A DNA stretch of 64,000 bases from a virus, in the UHGV virus genome UHGV-0038496. One strand, written 5' to 3'. The translations under genes were made by a program, and so were the position numbers. Positions 5,478 to 49,637 of this stretch are shown here, in pieces (within the stretch, counting starts at the first letter, position 1; the number at the start of each line of letters is the position of its first letter). The notes beneath the pieces were generated by a model. That model worked only from the letters and a program-made list of their open reading frames with translations. It did no database searches and was not told where the DNA came from.

Positions 5478-6166
5478 TAAGCCTCCGTAACGATAGTTGC
5501 GTCAACAACAATATTTTCACACCAAACAGTGGTGGAACCCCAATCAGGCCGTTCATCCGGTACATAAACCAGAGTAGCAATACCGTCTACCCCGAACTGC
5601 TCATCGTCCCAGACTGATCCAAATCCAGCAGCTGTATCATCTCCAGCAAAACCAAATGCCCTGCCCTGTGATTCTGTCAATCTCAGGTGAGTTGGCAGCG
5701 GCATCATATCAAGGATCTGATCAACTGCCTGACTAATGTCGAAGCAAGTTTTCCTGACGTTAATGTCGAATCGGAAGTTGTCCCCAGCCCATGTATCGAA
5801 ATTGTTTCTGCCCAGCAGCTGTTGTAGCGTAGAGATCACATCCTCACGCGTACCACCACGGGACAAAGATGCCTGTTGAATAATAAGTGTAGCACGATAG
5901 TCTGCATCTTGCAAGCCATTTCTTTTTATGCCAAACTGCTTACCAATCTCATCAAAATATTTACCGCTGGCATTGTTAAGTAGACGGCCTTCTGCAAGAG
6001 CAACTAACATCTCATCAACAGTCTGCAACCTTTTAAGGTAGATAGACAGGAACGTTGTCAGGTCTTCTTTCTCTCTCAGAAAATCGCCGGGGAGGTAATC
6101 CAGACCTCCCTCAACGAAATCTGGCAGAGTGTGAATGTGGTTAACATCTATTTTCTTCTCTGCCAT
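5477..6166 (-). CDS. Hypothetical baseplate-module protein
   Basis: 229 aa, start overlaps upstream stop (operon coupling). Confidence 0.5.
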   Translation of the reverse strand: MAEKKIDVNHIHTLPDFVEGGLDYLPGDFLREKEDLTTFLSIYLKRLQTVDEMLVALAEGRLLNNASGKYFDEIGKQFGIKRNGLQDADYRATLIIQQASLSRGGTREDVISTLQQLLGRNNFDTWAGDNFRFDINVRKTCFDISQAVDQILDMMPLPTHLRLTESQGRAFGFAGDDTAAGFGSVWDDEQFGVDGIATLVYVPDERPDWGSTTVWCENIVVDATIVTEA

Positions 6167-6175
6167 AACTCCACC

Positions 6176-7666
6176 TTAAATGATTTGCTGGAATGTGATG
6201 TTGTTTTCATCAAGGTCAAACACCTCTGACATTGCAGCTGTAATGTCAGTAGCTGTATAAGCCTCATCTGAAGCACCAATCGGTTTCACATGGATGCTCA
6301 ATTTGTTAAAACGACCGATACTAACAGCAGCAGAAGCAGCACCTACAAGCTGAATGTTGTAAAGCGTATCTGCAATATCGAGGCCGTTAACAACTGCCAT
6401 CATGGCATCTATGATTGATTCTTTTTCGGTAGCAGAAAGTGCCACACCGGAATACGTTACCTTAACGTCCAGACGGTAAGTATTTGCTTTGGAGTAGTAA
6501 ATTCTTTCCACCTGACCATCTGAGGTGTTGATATCGTAGAACAGGTTACCGTAAGTCCTGTTCGTACAAGCAACCGTATCATACAGAGCCTGACAAATAT
6601 CAGCAGTGGAGCCACCAAACACAACCACCTGGAACTTATAAGGCGGGATGCCTAAGTTGTTAGTCTTATCTGTGTTGTTGGTGAATACCCTGACTTTACT
6701 TACCCCAGCCACATTGTGAATCGCACTCAGGATCGCAGGACGAGTAGCTTTAGCAGTTACCGTGTTGGTGCTTGTAGCTCTCAGGCGATACTCAGCGTCT
6801 GTCTCTACGTTTGTACCTTCGTTGAACATCTCTCTGTTGGTGAGGGAGATGAAACCACTAGGTGTCGGAGAGATCGTGGTAACAGTGTTTGCTTCACGGG
6901 ACATTTCACCTGCTTCAGAAGCGATGACTTCCAGCACGACTGTACGTTCACCAACAATCGGAGAAATACGGAAGTCAACTTTACTGTTCAGGCCTACACG
7001 TTCAAGAGTGGCATCATAGCCAATCCACAACGTACCTGTGGACATATCCACTTGAATCAAATCTTCGTTCAAAAGCGTGGAGTTGTCAACAATAAATTGC
7101 TTGATCTCACCATAGAAACTAACAAGGTCTGTGGAATCCAGTGCCTTATCAGTAAGAATCATGGTTTTGGTAAAAATAGTGCCATCAACCTGATTGGTCA
7201 TCTGGAATATGTATTTACCAATTCTGAGATCCGGTGCTGTTATCTTGTGAGCAATTATGTTGCCTGCTACCTGTGCATTACTTGCGAGTTTGAAGTTACC
7301 ACTGTCAATGCTATAAGTTTCTGTGTCGTAAATCATATTATAAGGGACAGTACTGTTGATTGTCAACTGGCACTGACCAGAAGCCTTAGTACGCCCTCTA
7401 CGATAAACACCTTGTCTCCCCAGTAATTCATCAAGGTAGATGCCTTCTGCCCCGTACAGCGTCTGGGAGGCGTATACAGCAGCCATCATGAGGATTAACT
7501 GGTATTCACGTTCGTTAAAGATTGTGGTGAGCTTGTCAGCAACCGAGTTGCTCTGGACGTTGAAATTATCCCCGAACGCCCTGATCAAGCTCTGCTTAGT
7601 TTCAACGATCAAATCGTTAAGTGTGGGCAATATAAACCCAGCATCTGTTAAACCATATTTAGCCAT
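6176..7666 (-). CDS. Baseplate structural protein (putative)
   Basis: Start set at MAKYGL (codon 22 of the called ORF) with GAGG Shine-Dalgarno; 496 aa. Confidence 0.5.
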   Translation of the reverse strand: MAKYGLTDAGFILPTLNDLIVETKQSLIRAFGDNFNVQSNSVADKLTTIFNEREYQLILMMAAVYASQTLYGAEGIYLDELLGRQGVYRRGRTKASGQCQLTINSTVPYNMIYDTETYSIDSGNFKLASNAQVAGNIIAHKITAPDLRIGKYIFQMTNQVDGTIFTKTMILTDKALDSTDLVSFYGEIKQFIVDNSTLLNEDLIQVDMSTGTLWIGYDATLERVGLNSKVDFRISPIVGERTVVLEVIASEAGEMSREANTVTTISPTPSGFISLTNREMFNEGTNVETDAEYRLRATSTNTVTAKATRPAILSAIHNVAGVSKVRVFTNNTDKTNNLGIPPYKFQVVVFGGSTADICQALYDTVACTNRTYGNLFYDINTSDGQVERIYYSKANTYRLDVKVTYSGVALSATEKESIIDAMMAVVNGLDIADTLYNIQLVGAASAAVSIGRFNKLSIHVKPIGASDEAYTATDITAAMSEVFDLDENNITFQQII

Positions 7667-38002: not shown

Positions 38003-39009
38003 GCAGATAGGGTTATCGTGTCCTGGTGTTCAGGGCCGGACGCAACTCCGACCCCCGTTGGTTCCATCCACCGCATCCATGCTCGGCTGCATGTTACCAT
38101 GCAGAGCAGACTATATCACGATCCTGTTTCTCACAGGACCCTTCGCTTTTCGAGCACCATCAGCTTGTGCCCTACTCCCTTTCGGGATAGTCGTTGAACT
38201 ACAATTACCAATCATAATTGTTTGAAATGTAAGTATAAGTTTTCCTTTCCTTGATACTTTTCACTGTACGGTGAGAAACCCCCCACAATCTTGCCACCGC
38301 ACCAACGGATAAGCCTTTTTGTAAATCTTCGCAGATACCAATCACCTTGTGCTCACTTATTCTGTTAGCTGAAGGTATTTCCCTAAAGTGAAACTCCGCA
38401 GAGATATCTGGGTATACTGATCCATTCTTTATACCACTTACAAGGGTTTGATTGACACCGAACATCTGACAGATATCTTTTACCCTTGCACCTTGCTCTA
38501 ATAGCCTGCATATTTCAAGGGCAGTGGCATCATCCAAATACCTGTATTTATTTACATAATCTTTTTTAAGTCCAGTTTCATGGGCGTGGTGTGTGTTTTC
38601 CTCTGGGGTTGTCCACTCAAGGTTCCATGCGGCGTTATTCAACTTATTACCGTCCAAGTGATTTACTTGGGTTTTCACGCTAGGATTATCATTATCAACA
38701 AAAACCTCAGCAACAACTCTGTGAACAAGCACTTGGAACTTTTTGCCGTCCTCACACAGGGAAACCACAGCATAGCCTGTCTTTTTATGCGTAACAGGTT
38801 GAAGGAATTTATTAGAATACAAACTATAAATTCTGCCATCATATGTCACGCAATAGTGTGGGTAACCTAAAAATCCTAAATTCTTCATTTCAAACACTCC
38901 CTACTACAGTTTCGGAAGAATAATTATAGCTGCTGATTATCTGAAAGTCAATCAGATTTTCCAGCAATTAACGAAGTTATTCGACGTGCATTACTGCACG
39001 AAGCCACTA
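38003..39009 (-). mobile_element. Group I intron C in terminase gene, carrying HNH ORF (approximate boundaries)
   Basis: 3' part (38003-38204) contains AACGACTATCC...GATATAGTCTGCTCTGCATGGTAACATGCAGCCGAGCATGGATGCGGTGGATGGAACCAACGGGGGT, about 50/51 nt identical to nrdD intron 2. Confidence 0.6.
38205..38897 (-). CDS. Intron-encoded HNH homing endonuclease (NUMOD-like N-terminus)
   Basis: 230 aa; QVLVHRVVAEVFV, VNHLDGNKLNNAAWNLEW HNH motif; C-terminal helix-turn-helix-like region. Confidence 0.8.
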   Translation of the reverse strand: MFEMKNLGFLGYPHYCVTYDGRIYSLYSNKFLQPVTHKKTGYAVVSLCEDGKKFQVLVHRVVAEVFVDNDNPSVKTQVNHLDGNKLNNAAWNLEWTTPEENTHHAHETGLKKDYVNKYRYLDDATALEICRLLEQGARVKDICQMFGVNQTLVSGIKNGSVYPDISAEFHFREIPSANRISEHKVIGICEDLQKGLSVGAVARLWGVSHRTVKSIKERKTYTYISNNYDW

Positions 39010-39327: not shown

Positions 39328-39684
39328 CTGAGTCGTTTGTGTTCAGGCAAGGTCGCTAATCTTGCCCCGCCACCATGTGGCAGCTGCATGTCTCCATGCA
39401 GACCAGACTATATCTTATAAGCGGTAACAACCGCCTATCCTCCCGTTTCGGCAGTCTTAAAAGACTGTGGGTTTCCCCAGCCGCTTGGCCCTAACGCCCG
39501 TAAGCGATAGTCGTTGAGCACACATCCTATCAGGATGCTTCGCTGCGGATTATCTAAATCAACACACTATTACCATACCTTCGGTCTTTCTCCAAAGCCA
39601 ATATTATGTTACCATAATAGATTGGTGGTGTCAATAGTAAAGATTTCCCCGCAATTAGGGAGGTTTTACGAGAGCTACCAACTA
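39328..39684 (-). mobile_element. Group I intron B in terminase gene, ORF-less (approximate boundaries)
   Basis: Contains CAACGACTATCG...GATATAGTCTGGTCTGCATGGAGACATGCAGCTGCC...CCTGAACAC core elements (minus-strand sense). Confidence 0.5.
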
Positions 39685-39735
39685 ACCCTCGTCAAAGCAT
39701 ATTAAAGTATATTCCACTTTTGTCCCGCCGGATCG
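39685..39735 (-). CDS. Terminase large subunit mini-exon encoding Walker B motif (approximate boundaries)
   Basis: Minus-strand frame ...TKVEYTLICFDEG then TAG; LICFDE fits the hhhhDE Walker B consensus at the expected distance (about 100 aa) after the Walker A in the 5' exon. Confidence 0.5.
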
Positions 39736-39975
39736 CTACTCCGACGCGGTGTGCTAAGACACCCGCCACATATTACCATGTGGAACAGACTATCTCTTCC
39801 ATCCTTGGCGTGCCGTTTGGATCACCAATCGCTTGTGATTCTACTCCCCTACACTCATCGGGGATAGTCGTTACACTCGGTTTCAATTAATCCTTTAACC
39901 GTAGCTCGGTATTGTCCTTTTGTCAAGGAGTTTCACCGAATTAGGCACGAAGGGCAGGTTTGTTTACCCTTGATG
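39736..39975 (-). mobile_element. Group I intron A in terminase gene, ORF-less (approximate boundaries)
   Basis: Contains GTAACGACTATCCCC...GAGATAGTCTGTTCCACATGGTAATATGTGGCGGGTGTCTTAGCACACC core, paralogous to the tape measure intron. Confidence 0.45.
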
Positions 39976-41079
39976 ATTCAGCTTATCTTGGACGTATTCC
40001 ATGTGGCAGTACTTGATTACCGCACCATCCCTTTTCTTATTCCACTTACCTGTCTTTGCATCGTAATATGGAAAAGTAAACTTATGATCTTTCTCCCTAA
40101 ATTTTGGCCTCATATATTCAGGAAGATCCAGATACACACTTAGTGCTTTAGGCCACAGACCGCCTTCACCTTCCAGTTGTGGGGTTGTCCTACGGAACAT
40201 CACCACAGAGGTGTTTGGGTCATCTATCATCTTTAGTGGGAGAAGCTGCAAAAGAAAGGATTTACCACTGTTGCCTGTCACTGCAATGCAGTTTTCCAGT
40301 CTGGTGATAAAATAGCCTGTTGTGGTAGCAAAACAATATTTGTAACCATCTTCCGGCTCAAACTCTTCGAACGTTGCATCGTTATTAAGAGCAATCGTAC
40401 CTGCACGTTCGTTGGAGAACACAACTTTGTAACCCTTTTCGAAGAAGATCTGTGCATTGAATCCCAGAGATGATCCGAGGTATTGCAAGAAATCAGCCTG
40501 TTCTTTCGTTGGAACAACGTAGACATGCGAGTCATTACCGTTCAGGTAAATCTCATACCAGATCTGCAACAACTGGCGACGATCACAGTTATACCATTCA
40601 TCTGTGAATTTGTAATATCTTGCCTTTTCTTTCAGCTCTTCGTCAGAAATATCAAGGCCAGTACCACCCATGTTCACAAACGTGGTTTGCATACGCATTG
40701 CCAACTCATCGTTAGCATGTTGTTCGGCCACTTCACTGAAACAAAGTGTACCGTAATCTGTTCCGTCTTCTGGTACATACAGGACTGTGTGCTCGTCAGA
40801 CAATTCCTGACAAATACCATCCTGCACAACCCTGGTCAATTTATCGCATTCCAGCTTAACAAACTCTTCAGGCTGGATAAACATAGCCTTACCAGTTTCT
40901 TTATCAAACTGGAGGATATCTTGACCATCCCAGTCTGAGATTCTGATCCAACCGTTAGGTGTCATCACCTCATGTCGCATTGACAAACAACCCGCTGCCC
41001 CACCAATGATCAGGAAGTCGGCATCATTTTCCAGAATCATTTGTTGTTTACGGGAGCATGGGCCATACATTTTAGCCAT
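39964..41079 (-). CDS. Terminase large subunit, 5' exon (ATPase N-terminus with intein in P-loop)
   Basis: ORF as called (371 aa); extein sequence IIGGAAG / SGKSFLL reconstitutes Walker A GAAGSGKS once residues 31-270 are removed; the true 5' splice site lies somewhere before the in-frame stop at 39964. Confidence 0.75.
   Translation of the reverse strand: MAKMYGPCSRKQQMILENDADFLIIGGAAGCLSMRHEVMTPNGWIRISDWDGQDILQFDKETGKAMFIQPEEFVKLECDKLTRVVQDGICQELSDEHTVLYVPEDGTDYGTLCFSEVAEQHANDELAMRMQTTFVNMGGTGLDISDEELKEKARYYKFTDEWYNCDRRQLLQIWYEIYLNGNDSHVYVVPTKEQADFLQYLGSSLGFNAQIFFEKGYKVVFSNERAGTIALNNDATFEEFEPEDGYKYCFATTTGYFITRLENCIAVTGNSGKSFLLQLLPLKMIDDPNTSVVMFRRTTPQLEGEGGLWPKALSVYLDLPEYMRPKFREKDHKFTFPYYDAKTGKWNKKRDGAVIKYCHMEYVQDKLNHQG
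40270..40989 (-). mobile_element. Intein (mini-intein, about 240 aa) in terminase Walker A motif
   Basis: Begins CLSMRHEVMTPNGWIRISDW (intein block A pattern) and ends ...ENCIAVTGN followed by +1 Ser; flanking exteins form an intact P-loop. Confidence 0.7.
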
Positions 41080-42206: not shown

Positions 42207-42282
42207 TGGCACCCCGTACAGGACTCGAACCTGTAACCTATGGCTTAGAAGGCCACTGTTCTTCCATTTGAACTAACGGGGC
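42207..42282 (-). tRNA. tRNA-Arg (anticodon UCU), CCA encoded
   Basis: 76-nt cloverleaf on minus strand: acceptor GCCCCGT/ACGGGGT, D stem GTTC/GAAC, anticodon stem GTGGC/GCCAT with loop CTTCTAA, T arm ACAGG-TTCGAGT-CCTGT, discriminator G, 3' CCA. Confidence 0.85.
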
Positions 42283-44384: not shown

Positions 44385-45062
44385 ATGGCAGAACAAGAGA
44401 TCAAAGCAAGTGTACTGGAGAACTGGTTCAACAAAAACATCTGCTTTGGCAATGATGATTGCTACCGGAAGGTTGACAACCTGTTTGCTGTGTGGGTGAA
44501 AAATCCTGATGCTGTGACCAACAGGAAAGATTTCGATAAGCGAAGAATCCCTGAGGCGGGTAGTGTGTGGGCAGAAAAAAGCTGCCTGTTTCTGACCAAC
44601 ATTGATAAGGCAGTACTGAGTCATCTTGCTGACCAGAACAGAATCCAGTTCAAGTGCTACCAGATTCGTAAGCAGACAAGCTACGAAGATATGCACAGGA
44701 ACAACTGGTGCGGTGATTCCACACATGTGATCGCCATGGAAGCAGGGTTGCCGTACGACAAGAACCACAACAGGAACCGGAAGGTGGCAGAGAGTATCAA
44801 ATTCCTAGAGTCAATCGGCCTTGTGATTAGCAAACCACATGCACGGAGATTAGCGACTATTGATGAAATATCCACACACGAAGACGTGGAATATTTTCTT
44901 CTGCACCCTTCTAAAGACAGAACTTTAAGATCTGTTTTCAGCAGCAGAGCAGGTTTCCTGAAATGGGTAGAAGAAAACAGAGGTTGTGGATACAGCCAGT
45001 TACCTTACCAAGAGCATCATATTGACACGGATGTTCTCTTGTGGTATCCTTGTTACGATTAA
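44385..45062 (+). CDS. Hypothetical early protein
   Basis: 225 aa ORF directly downstream of consensus promoter. Confidence 0.5.
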   Translation: MAEQEIKASVLENWFNKNICFGNDDCYRKVDNLFAVWVKNPDAVTNRKDFDKRRIPEAGSVWAEKSCLFLTNIDKAVLSHLADQNRIQFKCYQIRKQTSYEDMHRNNWCGDSTHVIAMEAGLPYDKNHNRNRKVAESIKFLESIGLVISKPHARRLATIDEISTHEDVEYFLLHPSKDRTLRSVFSSRAGFLKWVEENRGCGYSQLPYQEHHIDTDVLLWYPCYD

Positions 45063-45079
45063 AAACAGGAGATGGGCTT

Positions 45080-45478
45080 ATGACAAATTTAGGGCAGTAC
45101 CACAAAATCTACTGGGAGATGACAGAGATAAAATACATCAGAAACAAGAAAGATGGTGGAGTAATCAGAGTAAAATCTGCACACATTTTAATCTACTCAT
45201 ACCTCCGTAGCTGTTTTGAAAAATATCTCAAAGCTATCAAGTTACGCAAAAACCAAGGTATGAAGGTTGTTCGGGCAGAGTTATGTGAGAAAGCAATGGT
45301 TGACAAATCTGTAGTCTGCAAAACTCTTAACGACCTTTCAGATGCTGGGTTGATATCTTTAATGAGTAACTCTGGTAAAAGGGGGTACGTATTCAATTTT
45401 GTAGCGGATGTTGAGTCTTTCTACAAAGCAGCAGTTGATGAGGATGGAGAGTCTATCTATGCAGTGGATACAGAGTGA
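45080..45478 (+). CDS. Putative winged-helix DNA-binding protein (candidate iteron-binding initiator/regulator)
   Basis: Start at MTNLGQYH with AGGAG Shine-Dalgarno; 132 aa; immediately followed by iteron array. Confidence 0.45.
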   Translation: MTNLGQYHKIYWEMTEIKYIRNKKDGGVIRVKSAHILIYSYLRSCFEKYLKAIKLRKNQGMKVVRAELCEKAMVDKSVVCKTLNDLSDAGLISLMSNSGKRGYVFNFVADVESFYKAAVDEDGESIYAVDTE

Positions 45479-45515
45479 TTATGACTGGTGCATTTTTGGC
45501 GGTTATAACCTCTCA

Positions 45516-45646
45516 TCAGTATGGAAACCATACCGTTTATCGGTATGGAAACCATTCATTATCGGTATGGAAACCGAAGAAAAAAGTGCGGTTTTATTTT
45601 TAAGAATATACCGATAAGAGGCGGTTTTCATACCAATAAGAGGTGG
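45516..45646. repeat. Iteron array: three direct 14-bp repeats plus inverted copy and a second duplicated motif
   Basis: CAGTATGGAAACCA, CGGTATGGAAACCA, CGGTATGGAAACCG at about 23-25 bp spacing; inverted TTTTCATACC; CCGATAAGAGGCGG / CCAATAAGAGGTGG. Confidence 0.6.
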
Positions 45647-45659
45647 AAATCGCCTAAAA

Positions 45660-46030
45660 ACTCCAGAATTATCTTTATAAATCCTAGGGTTAAGTGCTGA
45701 CAGATCAGATCAGATCAGGGATAGTAACTTCGTTAGCATTCCCTCTAACTCGTTACTATGTAGTACTAAGCTCGTACTCTCGCTTACTACCGTAAGCTCG
45801 GTACTCACTAAGTACTACCATAAGCAATGTCTTGCTTAATTAATTTATCAATTAATTTTATCAGTACAAAATCAATCAATAAATTAATTAATCAATCCAT
45901 TGATACCACTAAGTTCGTTCCTCACTAAGTGGTATACATGCTGATAGCATTCCCTCTATCAGATGATACTAAGTTCACACTTCGTATCCACTCGTGTTCA
46001 CTAAGTATCATTGATCCATTATTGCTCAAA
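45660..46030. repeat. AT-rich repeat field (candidate origin/regulatory region)
   Basis: Multiple CACTAAGT copies, duplicated AGCATTCCCTCTA (near 45725 and 45945), TTAATTAAT palindromes, DnaA-box-like GTATCCACT; no credible ORF. Confidence 0.4.
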
Positions 46031-46391
46031 TTTATTTTTTCTTTTCCCACAAATATGGCGCTCCTTTTACCGCTCGCTCGCGCTCGGCGGGTCGCGCCTG
46101 ATCATCGTCTGCTATCAACAAGTGGGCCTGTGGCAACAGAGCTGCCTGAGTTGTGTGGGAAGATCACCGACCGTAAGGGAGGTGCTAATGTGGGGATGAC
46201 GGTGAAAAGCGAAGCTGCCGAGAGGAACCGTCGAATTGTCTGCGCCGCCGCTTCAACCATACCCAGATACCAGAAATCAGTTTTGAGGCCTCTGGTAGCT
46301 TCTGTGGTTAGCTAATAGTGCCTGATGGCTACAGTTGCATTACTAAACTATCAACATCGTTACAGAGCGTTTGAGAGCGTTTAAATTAGTA

Positions 46392-46420
46392 TTGACAGCA
46401 GATGAAAATTATGTTATTGT
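46392..46420 (+). promoter_or_regulatory. Sigma70-type promoter
   Basis: TTGACA-N17-TATTGT upstream of the 46462 gene. Confidence 0.45.
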
Positions 46421-46461
46421 TCGCCTACTGGTAAAAGTATGCATGAGAAGAGAGGTGCTAC

Positions 46462-46935
46462 ATGCAAGACGGTCGTAAAATGCGTGAAGAGAAAATGCTG
46501 ATCGTTCAGCTTATCCCTAAACCGTTGTGGGGAGTAGCAGGACGTGAAGCTATTGGTCGTAGCTTGTGGGATAAAGCTCGTAAACGCTGCTATAAAGAAG
46601 CAGAGTACAGATGCGAAGTCTGCGGTGGTAAAGGGCCTAAACACCCTGTGGAAGCCCATGAGTTGTATCTGTTTGAAGATCACAAGATCACCTGTGTGGG
46701 GCTGATCGCATTATGCCCAGACTGCCATATGAGCGTGCATCCTGGACGCTGCAACTGCCTCGGCAGAGATGTTTACCTCAAGGCAAGAAAGCATTTTGCT
46801 GACGTAAACTGGTTGACAGAACAGCAGGCACAGGAGTATTATGAAGAGTGTTTCGAAGAGTGGAGAGAACTAAGCAAGATCAAGATCTGGGAAACTGATT
46901 TTTCATGGTTGGAGAATTACGCAAAAGGTAACTAA
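46462..46935 (+). CDS. Small cysteine/histidine-rich protein (possible HNH-like zinc-binding nuclease)
   Basis: 157 aa; CEVCGG...HPVEAHE...CPDCH pattern; AGAGAGG Shine-Dalgarno. Confidence 0.4.
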   Translation: MQDGRKMREEKMLIVQLIPKPLWGVAGREAIGRSLWDKARKRCYKEAEYRCEVCGGKGPKHPVEAHELYLFEDHKITCVGLIALCPDCHMSVHPGRCNCLGRDVYLKARKHFADVNWLTEQQAQEYYEECFEEWRELSKIKIWETDFSWLENYAKGN

Positions 46936-48060: not shown

Positions 48061-48345
48061 ATGTACACGTATAGAGTTCACCACCTTGAATCTGATGATA
48101 TTAAAGAGATTTCTCATGGCCTGAGCACTATGGTAATAGCTCTGAAGCGCAAGAAAGGTCTGCATGAGGTTTACATCCAGCCGAACGATGTTCTCCAGCT
48201 GGGAGATATGAAAGGGGTTAAAGTGAACCAGGTGGCAGGTGTGGATCAGAAAAGGTTTGTGAAAGGAAGCAAATGGAACGTAGTCTTCTTGTGTGCAACA
48301 AGTGAAGAAGCGTTGTACTACACAGTGACAGAATTTTGGTATTAA
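48061..48345 (+). CDS. Hypothetical early protein
   Basis: Start at MYTYRVHH with AAGGAGAG Shine-Dalgarno; 94 aa. Confidence 0.45.
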   Translation: MYTYRVHHLESDDIKEISHGLSTMVIALKRKKGLHEVYIQPNDVLQLGDMKGVKVNQVAGVDQKRFVKGSKWNVVFLCATSEEALYYTVTEFWY

Positions 48346-48359
48346 CAGGAGCACCACGC

Positions 48360-49637
48360 ATGAATCAAGTAAAAACAACCCTCTATGCACTCAACCGTGA
48401 CGGAAGCGTACAGCGGTGGAAAGTGTTTACAGAGGGTGAAAAAGTAATAGTTGAGTTCGGTAAGAAAGACGGTAAAATGCAGTACAAGGAGACGATCTGC
48501 AAAGCTAAAAACGTAGGCCGTGCCAATGAGACTACTCCAGAGCAACAGGCCGTTCTGGAAGCAACCAGTAAGTGGGAGAAGCAAGTTCGCCTGGGTTATG
48601 TTGAAGATGAAAGCAATCTTGTGGTGGAAGAAAATCTGATTCCGATGCTGGTCCATGATTACCTGAAACGCGGTAAATCACTTATTCTGCCGTGCTGGGG
48701 ATCACACAAGCTGGATGGTCTGCGGCTGCTGGTAAACTTCGAAGGGGATACTCCTGTGTTTATCTCACGCGGTAACAAATCGTATCCTATCGAAGGGGAC
48801 ATTATCAAACAACTTAAACAGCTCCGTATCCGCACTGGATTCAGCCGTTTTGACGGTGAGATTTACATTCATGGTCTGCCGTTGCAGAAAATAGTGTCTC
48901 TGGCGAAACGCTGGCGCACACAGGAAGAAATTCAGGCCGAGATCGATAAAGACTATGCCGCCGACATAAAACGCCGTCAGGCAGCGATTAAGGCAGGAAA
49001 ACCGACGTATCTGAACTTCAACAAAGAAGAGTTTCCTGTTGAAGTCGAACCTGTGCGTGATGACATGCGTTACGGTGGTTACTCAAGCTACGATCTGCAA
49101 TACCACATCTTCGATATTCCGAGTAACAAAGTATGGTGGGATCCTGAAACAGAGCAAGGGCGTTGTGCAGATCTTCTTGGCATCAAAGATTTCATTGAAG
49201 ATCTTGACCACATCTTCACTGCTGAGCCGGAACTGTTCCACACGGTTGAAGAGTGTGAAGAATCGGTGGGACGCTACATGGCTGAAGGTTATGAAGGTAC
49301 AGTACTGCGTAATTTCTGTGGTGAATATGAATACGGTCAACGTTCATGTAATGCTTTGAAATGGAAGAAATTTAACACGGATGAGGCCAAAGTTGTCGGT
49401 GCTGAAGAAGATAAAAACGGTGAAGGTGTATTGATTTGCCAGCTGAAAAATGGTAAAGTATTTAAGTGCAAAATGAAAGGCACACATGGTGAACGGTTGT
49501 ACTGGAGGATGGCTAATCTGAAAGGTAAATTTATCACGTTTAAGTACCAGGCTCTCACAGAAGACGGTCTTCCTAGTTTCCCTACAGGTATAGCGGTACG
49601 GGATGTAGACCCAATTACCTGGGAGGTTTTAGAATGA
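48360..49637 (+). CDS. ATP-dependent DNA ligase
   Basis: Start at MNQVKTT with AGGAG Shine-Dalgarno; adenylation motif I SHKLDGLR (KxDG); size 425 aa typical of phage ligases. Confidence 0.8.
   Translation: MNQVKTTLYALNRDGSVQRWKVFTEGEKVIVEFGKKDGKMQYKETICKAKNVGRANETTPEQQAVLEATSKWEKQVRLGYVEDESNLVVEENLIPMLVHDYLKRGKSLILPCWGSHKLDGLRLLVNFEGDTPVFISRGNKSYPIEGDIIKQLKQLRIRTGFSRFDGEIYIHGLPLQKIVSLAKRWRTQEEIQAEIDKDYAADIKRRQAAIKAGKPTYLNFNKEEFPVEVEPVRDDMRYGGYSSYDLQYHIFDIPSNKVWWDPETEQGRCADLLGIKDFIEDLDHIFTAEPELFHTVEECEESVGRYMAEGYEGTVLRNFCGEYEYGQRSCNALKWKKFNTDEAKVVGAEEDKNGEGVLICQLKNGKVFKCKMKGTHGERLYWRMANLKGKFITFKYQALTEDGLPSFPTGIAVRDVDPITWEVLE

Follow-up and report, generated by a model that had tools for sequence, protein, structure and literature searches.

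Does the nearly gene-free DNA that follows a small winged-helix gene in the virus genome UHGV-0038496 serve as an origin of replication, or does it act in transcription, packaging or some other step? We addressed this question in a window of 64,000 nucleotides of that genome (the whole stretch of DNA analysed; coordinates run 5' to 3' on the strand shown, here the + strand). Judged by its sequence, the window is part of a large rV5-like (Vequintavirinae-related) myophage, and its ATP-dependent DNA ligase (48336-49637) shares 70% identity with the ligases of Vequintavirus phages. The authors of the rV5 genome paper sought an origin of replication and found none (PMC3606486), and we found no later report of one in the literature on the rV5-like subfamily. 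A sequence-only reading of the window had taken the repeats, the AT-rich field and a DnaA-box-like site downstream of the gene for the layout of a theta-type origin, with an operator cluster as the alternative. Here we tentatively interpret the segment from about 45022 to 46391 as one conserved cis-acting cassette, an accessory or early iteron-type origin that comes with its own origin-binding protein. We hold this to be somewhat short of probable, and it fits the data best because of the anatomy of the cassette and the recurrence of that anatomy in lineage-specific form.

Phased repeats downstream of the winged-helix gene

The cassette opens with a sigma-70-like promoter (TTGACA-17-TATCCT with an extended -10 TG; 45022..45050, + strand) that scored 10/12 in a consensus scan and is a consensus match only. 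Downstream of it, a gene at 45080..45478 (+ strand), with an ATG start and an AGGAG ribosome-binding site, encodes a predicted winged-helix protein of 132 amino acids (DUF6945-like) with an acidic C-terminal tail. The following gap of about 980 bp (45478 to 46462) is gene-free in the window. For comparison we assembled 14 distinct close relatives from IMG/VR, ENA and Logan, and in all 14 a gene of the 132-residue type is followed by 980-1290 bp nearly without called genes and then by an HNH gene. The sole exception to the gene-free gap is a 52-residue open reading frame (ORF) over the iterons of relative L038 (638-796), which from its sequence we read as spurious. The window ORF at 45408-45617 is, as had been suggested, a by-product of the repeats; in almost all relatives the gap contains no gene.

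Three direct iterons with the core GTAYGGAAAYC occupy 45515..45577 on the + strand (cores at 45519-29, 45543-53 and 45565-75). The 11-bp core GTATGGAAACC is exact in all three (starts 45519, 45543 and 45565), the spacing is 24 and 22 bp, and the first iteron forms a dyad (GTATGGAAACCATAC). Further downstream, 45608..45651 holds an inverted iteron copy (GGTTTTCATACC, 45623-34), two copies of the 17-mer ATACCRATAAGAGGYGG (at 45608 and 45630) and a degenerate direct core (GGTGGAAATCG). With at most one mismatch allowed, the 12-mer has five matches in the window, four of them inside 120 bp (a rough clustering estimate gives about 3e-8), and the phased repeats were found nowhere else in the 64 kb. 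Cores and phasing are preserved in most of the 14 relatives, with spacers that vary freely; in L005 and L010 some iteron copies are flipped or degenerate. The iterons, the inverted copy and the second duplicated motif first noticed by eye in the letters are thus all present, clustered beyond chance and conserved among relatives. A pattern search of IMG/VR with TGTGTGGGA...CTAATGTGG returned mostly chance matches (3 of 13 were real) and was discarded.

Between the direct and inverted iterons lies GGAAACCG-AAGAAAAAAGTG-CGGTTTTATTTTT, a weak hairpin with A/T runs (45569..45603, + strand) whose mean pairwise identity is 91% over seven relatives. It may be a weak terminator or a bend; a terminator scan did not call it. 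Such a feature could be at home in a different kind of locus, one in which a regulator and its operator array control a non-coding RNA. The protein would then be a roadblock, an anti-roadblock or a terminator helper for the transcripts of its own gene, its binding would set transcription into the hairpins and GC-rich RNA described below, and the RNA would be the real product, for instance in host takeover or counter-defence. We consider this explanation doubtful, while taking it seriously throughout. The conserved weak hairpin with its T-run between the direct and inverted sites argues for it, and the position of the sites argues against it, as they overlap no promoter and the protein's own promoter carries no site. 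The promoter-like sites found by consensus scan (44328, 45022 and 46392) all fall outside 45515-45651 and have no iteron-like site nearby. Since no promoter-like site overlaps the iterons, sites placed over a promoter, as an operator cluster would have them, are not seen. The operator alternative raised from the letters alone is retained as a rival, stripped of any promoter under the repeats.

The AT-rich field as a chain of hairpins

About 370 bp downstream of the repeats had been described as AT-rich. As a whole the field averages 35% GC, and only a 78-bp core within it, at 19% GC, is strongly AT-rich. The earlier description also missed that the field is a chain of hairpins and that a GC-rich structured element lies beyond it. 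The hairpin block is a 290-bp chain of imperfect palindromes around the 78-bp core. Hairpin H1 (45721..45759) has an outer stem ATAGTAAC/GTTACTAT, an inner stem GTTAG/CTAAC and the loop CATTCCCT (45737-44), and it folds, as does H2 (45760..45818), an inverted repeat (I8) with ACTAAG-containing arms. Next comes the AT-rich core, where TTAATTAA-type palindromes combine into an imperfect inverted repeat with 35-nt arms (45825..45902). Located about 170 bp beyond the last repeat and falling to 13% GC over 45836-45897, it is a candidate unwinding element. It has three of the six window matches to the integration host factor (IHF) consensus WATCAANNNNTTR (45874-45905), a place where local composition favours such matches. 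To its right, H4 (45903..45935; ATACCACTAAGT / ACTAAGTGGTAT, inverted repeat I11) folds with a conserved A.A mismatch, H5 (45942..45961; TGATAG-CATTCCCT-CTATCA, direct repeat D7) folds around a second copy of the conserved loop, and H6 (45963..46011; inverted repeat I7) has 18-nt arms and the DnaA-box-like GTATCCACT in its loop.

Several short motifs recur along the block. CACTAAGT occurs four times and ACTAAGT five times in 45807-46006, all on the + strand; five of the nine ACTAAGT matches in the window lie within these 200 bp on one strand, for which we estimate a chance of about 1e-8. The two copies of the 13-mer TAGCATTCCCTCTA are 211 bp apart (about 220 bp had been given), and the TTAATTAA-type palindromes and the short repeats of the AT-rich field were likewise recovered. 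The DnaA-box-like site fared worse: GTATCCACT has two mismatches to TTWTNCACA, and such sites occur in the window as often as chance predicts (166 observed versus 162 expected). The 8-nt loop CATTCCCT is found on three unrelated stems, namely in H1, at 45942-61 and in the divergent relative L042 (3723-56).

The fold of the segment 45715-46015 (301 nt) is a row of local hairpins and, on either strand, scores z about -9 to -11 relative to shuffles. Mean identity over 45720-46012 is 94-95% and rises to 98% in the right half (45903-46012), with the third codon positions of the flanking genes lying below the hairpin block at 79% and 70%. Among 1470 pair cells in the block there is not one non-wobble (transversion-type) mismatch, and two double compensatory changes are clean: T-A to G-C at 45846/45881, and A-T to T-A at 45966/46008 in L002. 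An alternative local hairpin in H2 (GTAGTA..AAGC / GCTT-ACTAC), read from the sequence and derived neither from I8 nor from the minimum-free-energy (MFE) fold, would pair 45771 with 45782, changing from C-G to T-A and being C.A in L004; in the MFE-based pair table both positions have other partners. Read on the + strand, wobble-type cells comprise 68 A.C versus 22 G.T, so that folding of the - strand is mildly favoured. No sigma-70 promoter that could convincingly drive a - strand transcript of the block emerged from a scan with manual inspection. The explanation by a regulator and its operators leaves both the extreme AT-rich palindrome and the conservation of hairpins on both strands unexplained.

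A GC-rich structured element at the right end

The remainder of the cassette is a structured element of 350 nt and 51% GC (46040..46391, + strand), consisting of a 5' hairpin (about 46057-46098), a core (46145-46258) and a long 3' helix that ends at the next promoter. Its sequence features make it most likely an RNA on the + strand. We take it to be non-coding because the length differences among relatives are not multiples of three and all frames are broken; nor are genes called in it. The inserted hairpins of the element differ among relatives. In a manual structure of the core, 95% of cells pair and 7 of 20 pairs have changed on both sides, compared with none of 500 shuffles matching it and values of 23-55% in slid controls. 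The core helices are capped by GNRA loops that vary within that class (GUAA/GAGA/GCAA at one site, GAGA/GGAA/GGGA at another), and G.U pairs on the + strand are abundant in the long 3' helix. The covariation of the helices, the GNRA loops and the + strand G.U pairs count towards the regulator explanation, as does the orientation of the element relative to the protein gene, which is constant in all lineages.

As no convincing sigma-70 promoter of its own was found for the GC-rich RNA by scan and manual inspection, the element would be transcribed from the promoter of the winged-helix gene. Rfam 15 returned nothing at the gathering score in 45400-46500, and a permissive search gave chance-level matches only (E above 5). 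Readings as a CsrA sponge, an omega-RNA/HEARO or an intron were rejected, as neither motifs nor neighbouring genes nor Rfam supported them. To the right, the module is bounded by a sigma-70-like promoter (TTGACA-17-TATTGT; 46392..46420, + strand) for the downstream operon with the HNH gene (46462-46935), and this promoter is kept in all relatives.

Recurrence of the layout with unrelated repeats

The anatomy behind the proposed theta-type origin (winged-helix gene, phased repeats, AT-rich region) holds in four lineages, without the DnaA box and without the standing of a sole essential origin. These four lineages are divergent, and each shows the tripartite layout with its own unrelated dyad repeats. 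In FV3 and Bas54 a homologue of 116 residues is followed by four dyad iterons (CTGTCCGTnAnACGGACAC), AT-rich DNA with GTACTTA/TAAGTAC palindromes and a GC-rich region. In L042 the gene (encoding protein P0013) precedes long dyads on ATGTCGGA/TCCGACAT and a CATTCCCT-loop hairpin on a third, unrelated stem, after which come an ACTAAC-type hairpin, an AT/purine-rich tract and a GC-rich region. In L025, otherwise a close relative (IMGVR_UViG_3300045988_159287; 5690-6330, corresponding to about 45063-46125 of the window), the 132-residue gene, the iterons and the hairpin block are replaced by four GGGCCAAATAATGGCCC dyads spaced 33 bp apart and by AT-rich palindromes of another kind, which join the shared GC-rich element at about 46126. 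AT-rich palindromic DNA is also part of the FV3, L025 and L042 versions. Lineage-specific repeats within a conserved layout are as an initiator/origin cassette predicts. The cassette belongs to the rightward early unit in the window group and to the opposite unit in FV3 and L042, and it has therefore been inverted as a block together with its gene.

The GC-rich element links these lineages as well. R1, a covariance model built from the window group only, has a single full-length match at each Vequintavirus locus and in L042, in the expected place and on the expected strand (E 1e-5 to 3e-4). It found nothing in 21 kb around the ligase of PVP-SE1; in Seunavirus the module may lie elsewhere or be absent.

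The corresponding Vequintavirus gene (FV3_00072, its rV5 homologue and bas54_0212; phrog_12838) is annotated as 'replication initiation protein' or 'putative transcriptional regulator'. It resembles the window gene in remote homology, in a shared DUF6945 best match and phrog_9088, and in the same tripartite layout including an R1-type element. It differs in its low pairwise identity (22%), its other iteron sequence, the absence of the CATTCCCT hairpin and the opposite transcription unit. In GenBank records of Vequintavirus the non-coding part is blank, carries small spurious ORFs or is marked 'repeat_region'. As a unit, the cassette is not previously described: our literature searches on origins, iterons, non-coding RNAs and transcriptomes of rV5-like phages, Vequintavirus and Vequintavirinae, and on DUF6945, yielded nothing on it, the on-topic finds being the rV5 genome paper and the HIDEN-SEQ preprint discussed below. 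INPHARED nucleotide searches with the region in near and distant modes matched the HNH gene only, and the window has no nucleotide-level relative in that database.

The cassette might also be some other cis-acting DNA element, in which a site-specific protein and extruded hairpins form a hotspot for recombination or replication restart, a fork barrier, a decoy or an anti-defence device. We rate this as fairly unlikely. In its favour, the invariant loop on different stems implies recognition of single-stranded DNA or RNA, the preference of the AT block for the - strand and of the GC-rich element for the + strand hints at different single-stranded states, the cassette was swapped whole in L025, and in Bas54 it is non-essential yet relevant to fitness. 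Against it, no specific known system has such an anatomy, and in scans of Pfam, NCBIfam and PHROGs (PADLOC was not searched) the adjacent proteins received no defence or recombination assignment.

The winged-helix protein

Homologues of the window protein at 81-97% identity all have its length. Searches of large protein libraries retrieved only such close homologues (at least 81% identity) and the remote P0013 (33% identity, E 1e-10). Two more candidates from an exhaustive HMMER search, P0012 and P0014, were rejected as spurious repeat proteins, and tblastn with the 132-residue protein gave no match. All Pfam matches are sub-threshold and most are to winged-helix families, with DUF6945 the best (21.6 bits, cut-off 28) and MarR_2, Fe_dep_repress and HTH_11 also matching (residues 46-103). 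A PDB profile search retrieved the Lrs14-like 6cmv (E 0.005) and also MarR. An AlphaFold2 model (predicted local distance difference test score, pLDDT, of 60) has a helix-turn-helix and a beta wing, with the recognition helix at 76-88 and wing strands at 92-96 and 103-107. Foldseek searches with this model returned 4ro3 (E 1.6e-3), then PerR, MarR and RepA_N N-terminal domains, and weak matches to the plasmid initiators in PDB 5kbj, 4pt7 and 4pql (E about 0.1-0.2). With a pLDDT of just 60, we read these fold matches as generic winged-helix similarity only. Nevertheless, the closest sequence and fold matches are to regulators of the MarR/Lrs14/PerR type, a further point for a regulator with an RNA product.

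The path to known initiators is longer. DUF6945 is the best Pfam match of both P0013 and FV3_00072, and both match phrog_12838 ('replication initiation protein'). FV3_00072 has additional weak matches to N-terminal parts of larger PHROG initiator families, one of which P0013 matches too, and the remote chain from these two proteins to PHROG 'replication initiation protein' families comprises phrog_12838, phrog_270, phrog_428 and phrog_8102. For the window protein itself the only PHROG match is phrog_9088 (function unknown), one that it shares with FV3_00072. Its place in an initiator family thus appears only remotely supported, by an indirect and annotation-based route. A co-variation between wing residues (VF/TL at 104-105) and an iteron base (GTATGG/GTACGG) was strict in seven relatives, failed in 14 and was rejected.

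Fitness effects of insertions in Bas54

Transposon insertions have been mapped across Bas54 (phage MaxBurger) in the HIDEN-SEQ preprint (bioRxiv 10.1101/2025.11.20.689424), and we mapped the cassette onto the Bas54 genome to read the published counts. In the winged-helix gene bas54_0212, 17 of 20 TA sites were hit with a mean of 13.6 reads, and in bas54_0213, a spurious ORF over the iterons, 4 of 7 with a mean of 18.1; both are classed as Intermediate. Over the GC-rich element, bas54_0214 was hit at 5 of 5 sites (mean 134.9 reads, not classed) and bas54_0215, which covers the R1 core, at 4 of 6 (mean 78.4, Intermediate). The flanking genes 0209-0211 and 0216 were hit at most TA sites with means of 140-190 reads and are classed as Non-essential. 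Relative to these neighbours, the protein gene and the iterons show a matching depletion of about 10-fold: protein and sites behave alike, affect fitness and are not essential, and the GC-rich element is dispensable in the host used. Because the cassette is non-essential, it is not the sole origin of a lambda-type system. The small ORFs bas54_0213 to bas54_0215 (L045 522-1041) and window ORF 45408-45617 are almost certainly not genes, and the reading frames of the small ORFs over the iterons and GC-rich element (in L045, the window and L038) are not conserved.

These counts bear on two of the rivals. A non-essential cassette is what a regulator of a non-coding RNA allows, but insertions in the GC-rich element are found at much higher reads than those in the protein gene and iterons, and the fitness effect of protein and iterons is therefore not exerted via an intact downstream RNA. 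As for the idea that the repeats are chance or non-functional spacer remnants, to which we give practically no credence, the Bas54 fitness effect joins the clustering statistics, the conservation above coding DNA, the compensatory changes and the four-lineage layout in opposing it, and conservation already refutes it.

The preprint further describes a Bas54 region of about 2 kb as insertion-free (bioRxiv 10.1101/2025.11.20.689424). This region (MZ501093.1 92786-95297; L046 487-2998) measures 2.5 kb, contains 224 TA sites and few repeats at 39% GC, and has no FV3-type iterons. It is a rival candidate for the essential cis element (origin or packaging site) in the phage group.

Genome setting and the packaging alternative

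Structural genes of the window lie on the - strand (1 to 44039), and early and DNA-metabolism genes on the + strand from 44385. The cumulative GC skew turns at about 44 kb, precisely at this switch of coding strand. The cassette is 1-2 kb away from the skew minimum and the point of divergent transcription, a proximity in keeping with an origin; since the minimum coincides with the gene-strand switch, it is not independent evidence of one. The rV5 authors drew the same conclusion on GC skew (PMC3606486).

A further alternative is a packaging (pac) site, with the winged-helix protein as a small-terminase-like factor that oligomerises on the phased repeats so that the first terminase cut falls close by. 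A (winged) helix-turn-helix at the N-terminus is common in small terminases, which often recognise phased repeats beside bent, IHF-bound DNA, as at lambda cosB, SPP1 pac and P1 pac. Moreover, no recognisable small terminase lies beside the large-terminase gene (39964-41079), the upstream gene encoding an Rz-like spanin. On the other hand, growth should depend on a small terminase and its pac site, yet the Bas54 homologue takes insertions at 17 of 20 TA sites, a strong argument against this proposal. In addition, the cassette belongs to the early region. Some 4 kb separate it from the terminase gene, which in the window occupies the opposite strand, and its orientation is inverted between lineages; the long oligomerisation helices typical of small terminases are absent from the protein (in a low-confidence model). 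Overall we find a packaging role very improbable.

A proposed mechanism and its weaknesses

According to the accessory-origin reading that we prefer, the 132-residue protein would be made early from its sigma-70-type promoter and would bind the phased GTAYGGAAAYC cores downstream of its gene, the array consisting of three direct cores and then inverted copies across an A/T-tract hinge. The nucleoprotein array, perhaps with IHF bending, would destabilise the 78-bp palindrome of 13-19% GC, and the flanking palindromes would form single-stranded hairpins by extrusion or folding. Loading or priming signals for the phage helicase-primase could then be supplied by the CATTCCCT loop and by the ACTAAGT stems with their A.A mismatch, much as IncQ plasmids use their ssi hairpins. 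A transcript started at the protein's promoter would cross the region into the GC-rich RNA, which may activate or modulate the origin, yet is dispensable in laboratory infection. As in T4 and T7, initiation at other places or through recombination would be available too, and loss of the cassette would therefore cost fitness and not viability.

A bolder version, which we think distinctly unlikely, is a new type of origin in which an iteron-binding protein, single-stranded CAUUCCCU/CATTCCCT-loop hairpins and a GNRA-rich RNA of 350-520 nt together give RNA-assisted, conditional initiation, the origin-bound RNA for example priming, licensing or protecting initiation in particular hosts. If true, large lytic coliphage relatives would have in it their first structured RNA family associated with an origin.

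Counting for an origin are phased repeats that in the 64 kb occur only here and overlap no promoter-like site, cores kept among varying spacers, the adjacent palindrome of 19% GC, the strong fold, high identity and compensatory changes of the hairpin block, its CATTCCCT loop on unrelated stems, the recurrence of the layout with other dyads, the remote PHROG link and the joint depletion of insertions in gene and iterons of Bas54. A number of observations weigh against it. DnaA boxes are at chance level, and the protein, which is small and by its sequence like a MarR/Lrs14 regulator, had no match to the curated initiator families Rep_3, phage O and RepA_N in Pfam and NCBIfam scans. Near-invariant hairpins and a large structured RNA are atypical of classical unwinding elements. 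The GC-skew switch is a transcription switch (cf. PMC3606486). L025 lacks the 132-residue gene and has a different iteron set, and L032-34 and L008 mix wing and iteron types, which is why this link was dropped as evidence of a specificity switch. Finally, the Bas54 homologue is Intermediate and not essential (insertions at 17 of 20 TA sites), and the only insertion-free non-coding locus of Bas54 is the separate 2.5-kb convergent intergenic region, which lies outside the window.

Whatever its role, a concrete cassette is now defined in at least four lineages, with a binding protein, probable sites, an unwinding region, hairpins and a structured RNA. rV5-like phages (the Vequintavirinae and their relatives) are studied and are used in biocontrol and therapy, and if the cassette is an origin it would offer a handle for phage engineering and for studies of replication. 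Should it prove otherwise, a new conserved family of structured nucleic acids with no Rfam match would still be represented by the GC-rich element and the CATTCCCT hairpins. The annotation of small ORFs over the region in some records is corrected in either case.

Neighbouring genes and elements

Just upstream of the cassette, 44385-45062 (+ strand) encodes a protein of 225 residues to which no function was assigned and which contains a winged-helix-like segment (ESIKFLESIGLVIS). This position is variable in relatives, with a 90-residue gene, a 236-residue gene or none. L025 has an upstream protein of 224 residues that is 77% identical to that of the window and carries a 10-residue insertion where the sequence resembles a winged-helix wing. 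Genes of the KilA-N, ANT, Bro or pRha kinds also occur at this upstream position in relatives, encoded by the opposite strand. In L010 (483-2066; Logan SRR31707863_4321), a lytic-phage relative, an IS200/IS605-type pair, a Y1 transposase with an OrfB/TnpB-like gene, has inserted roughly 1 kb before the winged-helix gene. Elements of this type transpose via single-stranded DNA.

Directly after the cassette, 46462-46935 (+ strand) is a free-standing HNH endonuclease gene (phrog_5200) with nucleotide-level relatives elsewhere in Vequintavirus genomes, suggesting a mobile homing-endonuclease gene. Downstream of the sigma-70-like promoter at 46392 and ahead of the HNH start codon, TGGTAAAAGTA (46428-46438, + strand) fits the late-promoter-like motif TggTAaAAtA reported for rV5 (PMC3606486). 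On the - strand, a group I intron (39384-39720; Rfam, 80 bits) is located between the terminase ORF 39964-41079 and an HNH endonuclease ORF (38205-38897) and appears to interrupt the former, which has large-terminase matches and also an N-terminal PhoH-like stretch. A single tRNA-Arg(TCT) is found at 42207-42282 (- strand), where Vequintavirus phages have five or six clustered tRNAs.

Comparison with known systems

The origins of lambda (ori-lambda with O) and SPP1 (oriL with G38P) resemble the cassette in having three or four dyad sites about two helical turns apart beside an AT-rich region, a winged-helix binding domain, lineage-specific swaps of initiator and iterons, and transcription through or near the origin. 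In lambda, however, the iterons are inside the O gene, the C-terminal domain of O recruits the helicase loader, and both O and ori are essential; in the cassette the sites are downstream of a 132-residue protein that has a short acidic tail only, and the Bas54 version is non-essential.

Iteron plasmids of the Rep_3 and RepA_N types (pPS10, R6K, pSC101, pSK41) likewise combine a winged-helix initiator with phased repeats, an AT-rich unwinding element and IHF sites, each with at least a candidate counterpart in the cassette. Their inverted repeat copies serve autoregulation elsewhere, and the cassette also has inverted copies. Unlike these plasmids, the cassette has no significant DnaA boxes, no Rep_3 or RepA_N profile match and only generic similarity of its winged-helix fold.

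A parallel for the hairpins is the oriV of the IncQ plasmid RSF1010, where an AT-rich stretch and conserved hairpins come after the RepC iterons. The hairpins ssiA and ssiB are active only when single-stranded and are entry sites for the element-encoded primase and helicase, and an ssi-like role would account for the conservation of the hairpins in structure as well as in sequence. RSF1010 differs in having two ssi hairpins on opposite strands within a large inverted repeat, whereas the cassette has five or six hairpins, two of which share the CATTCCCT loop and are arranged as direct repeats on a single strand.

The last comparison is with T4 oriF and oriG, the primary origin of T7 and the RNA II of ColE1, all of which depend on a transcript across an easily melted region. 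These origins have no iterons and no dedicated binding protein, and in the cassette the structured RNA is downstream, not upstream, of the AT-rich region and tolerates insertions. On the other hand, the T4 and T7 origins are individually dispensable owing to other modes of initiation, which fits the non-essential, reduced-fitness phenotype of the Bas54 cassette.

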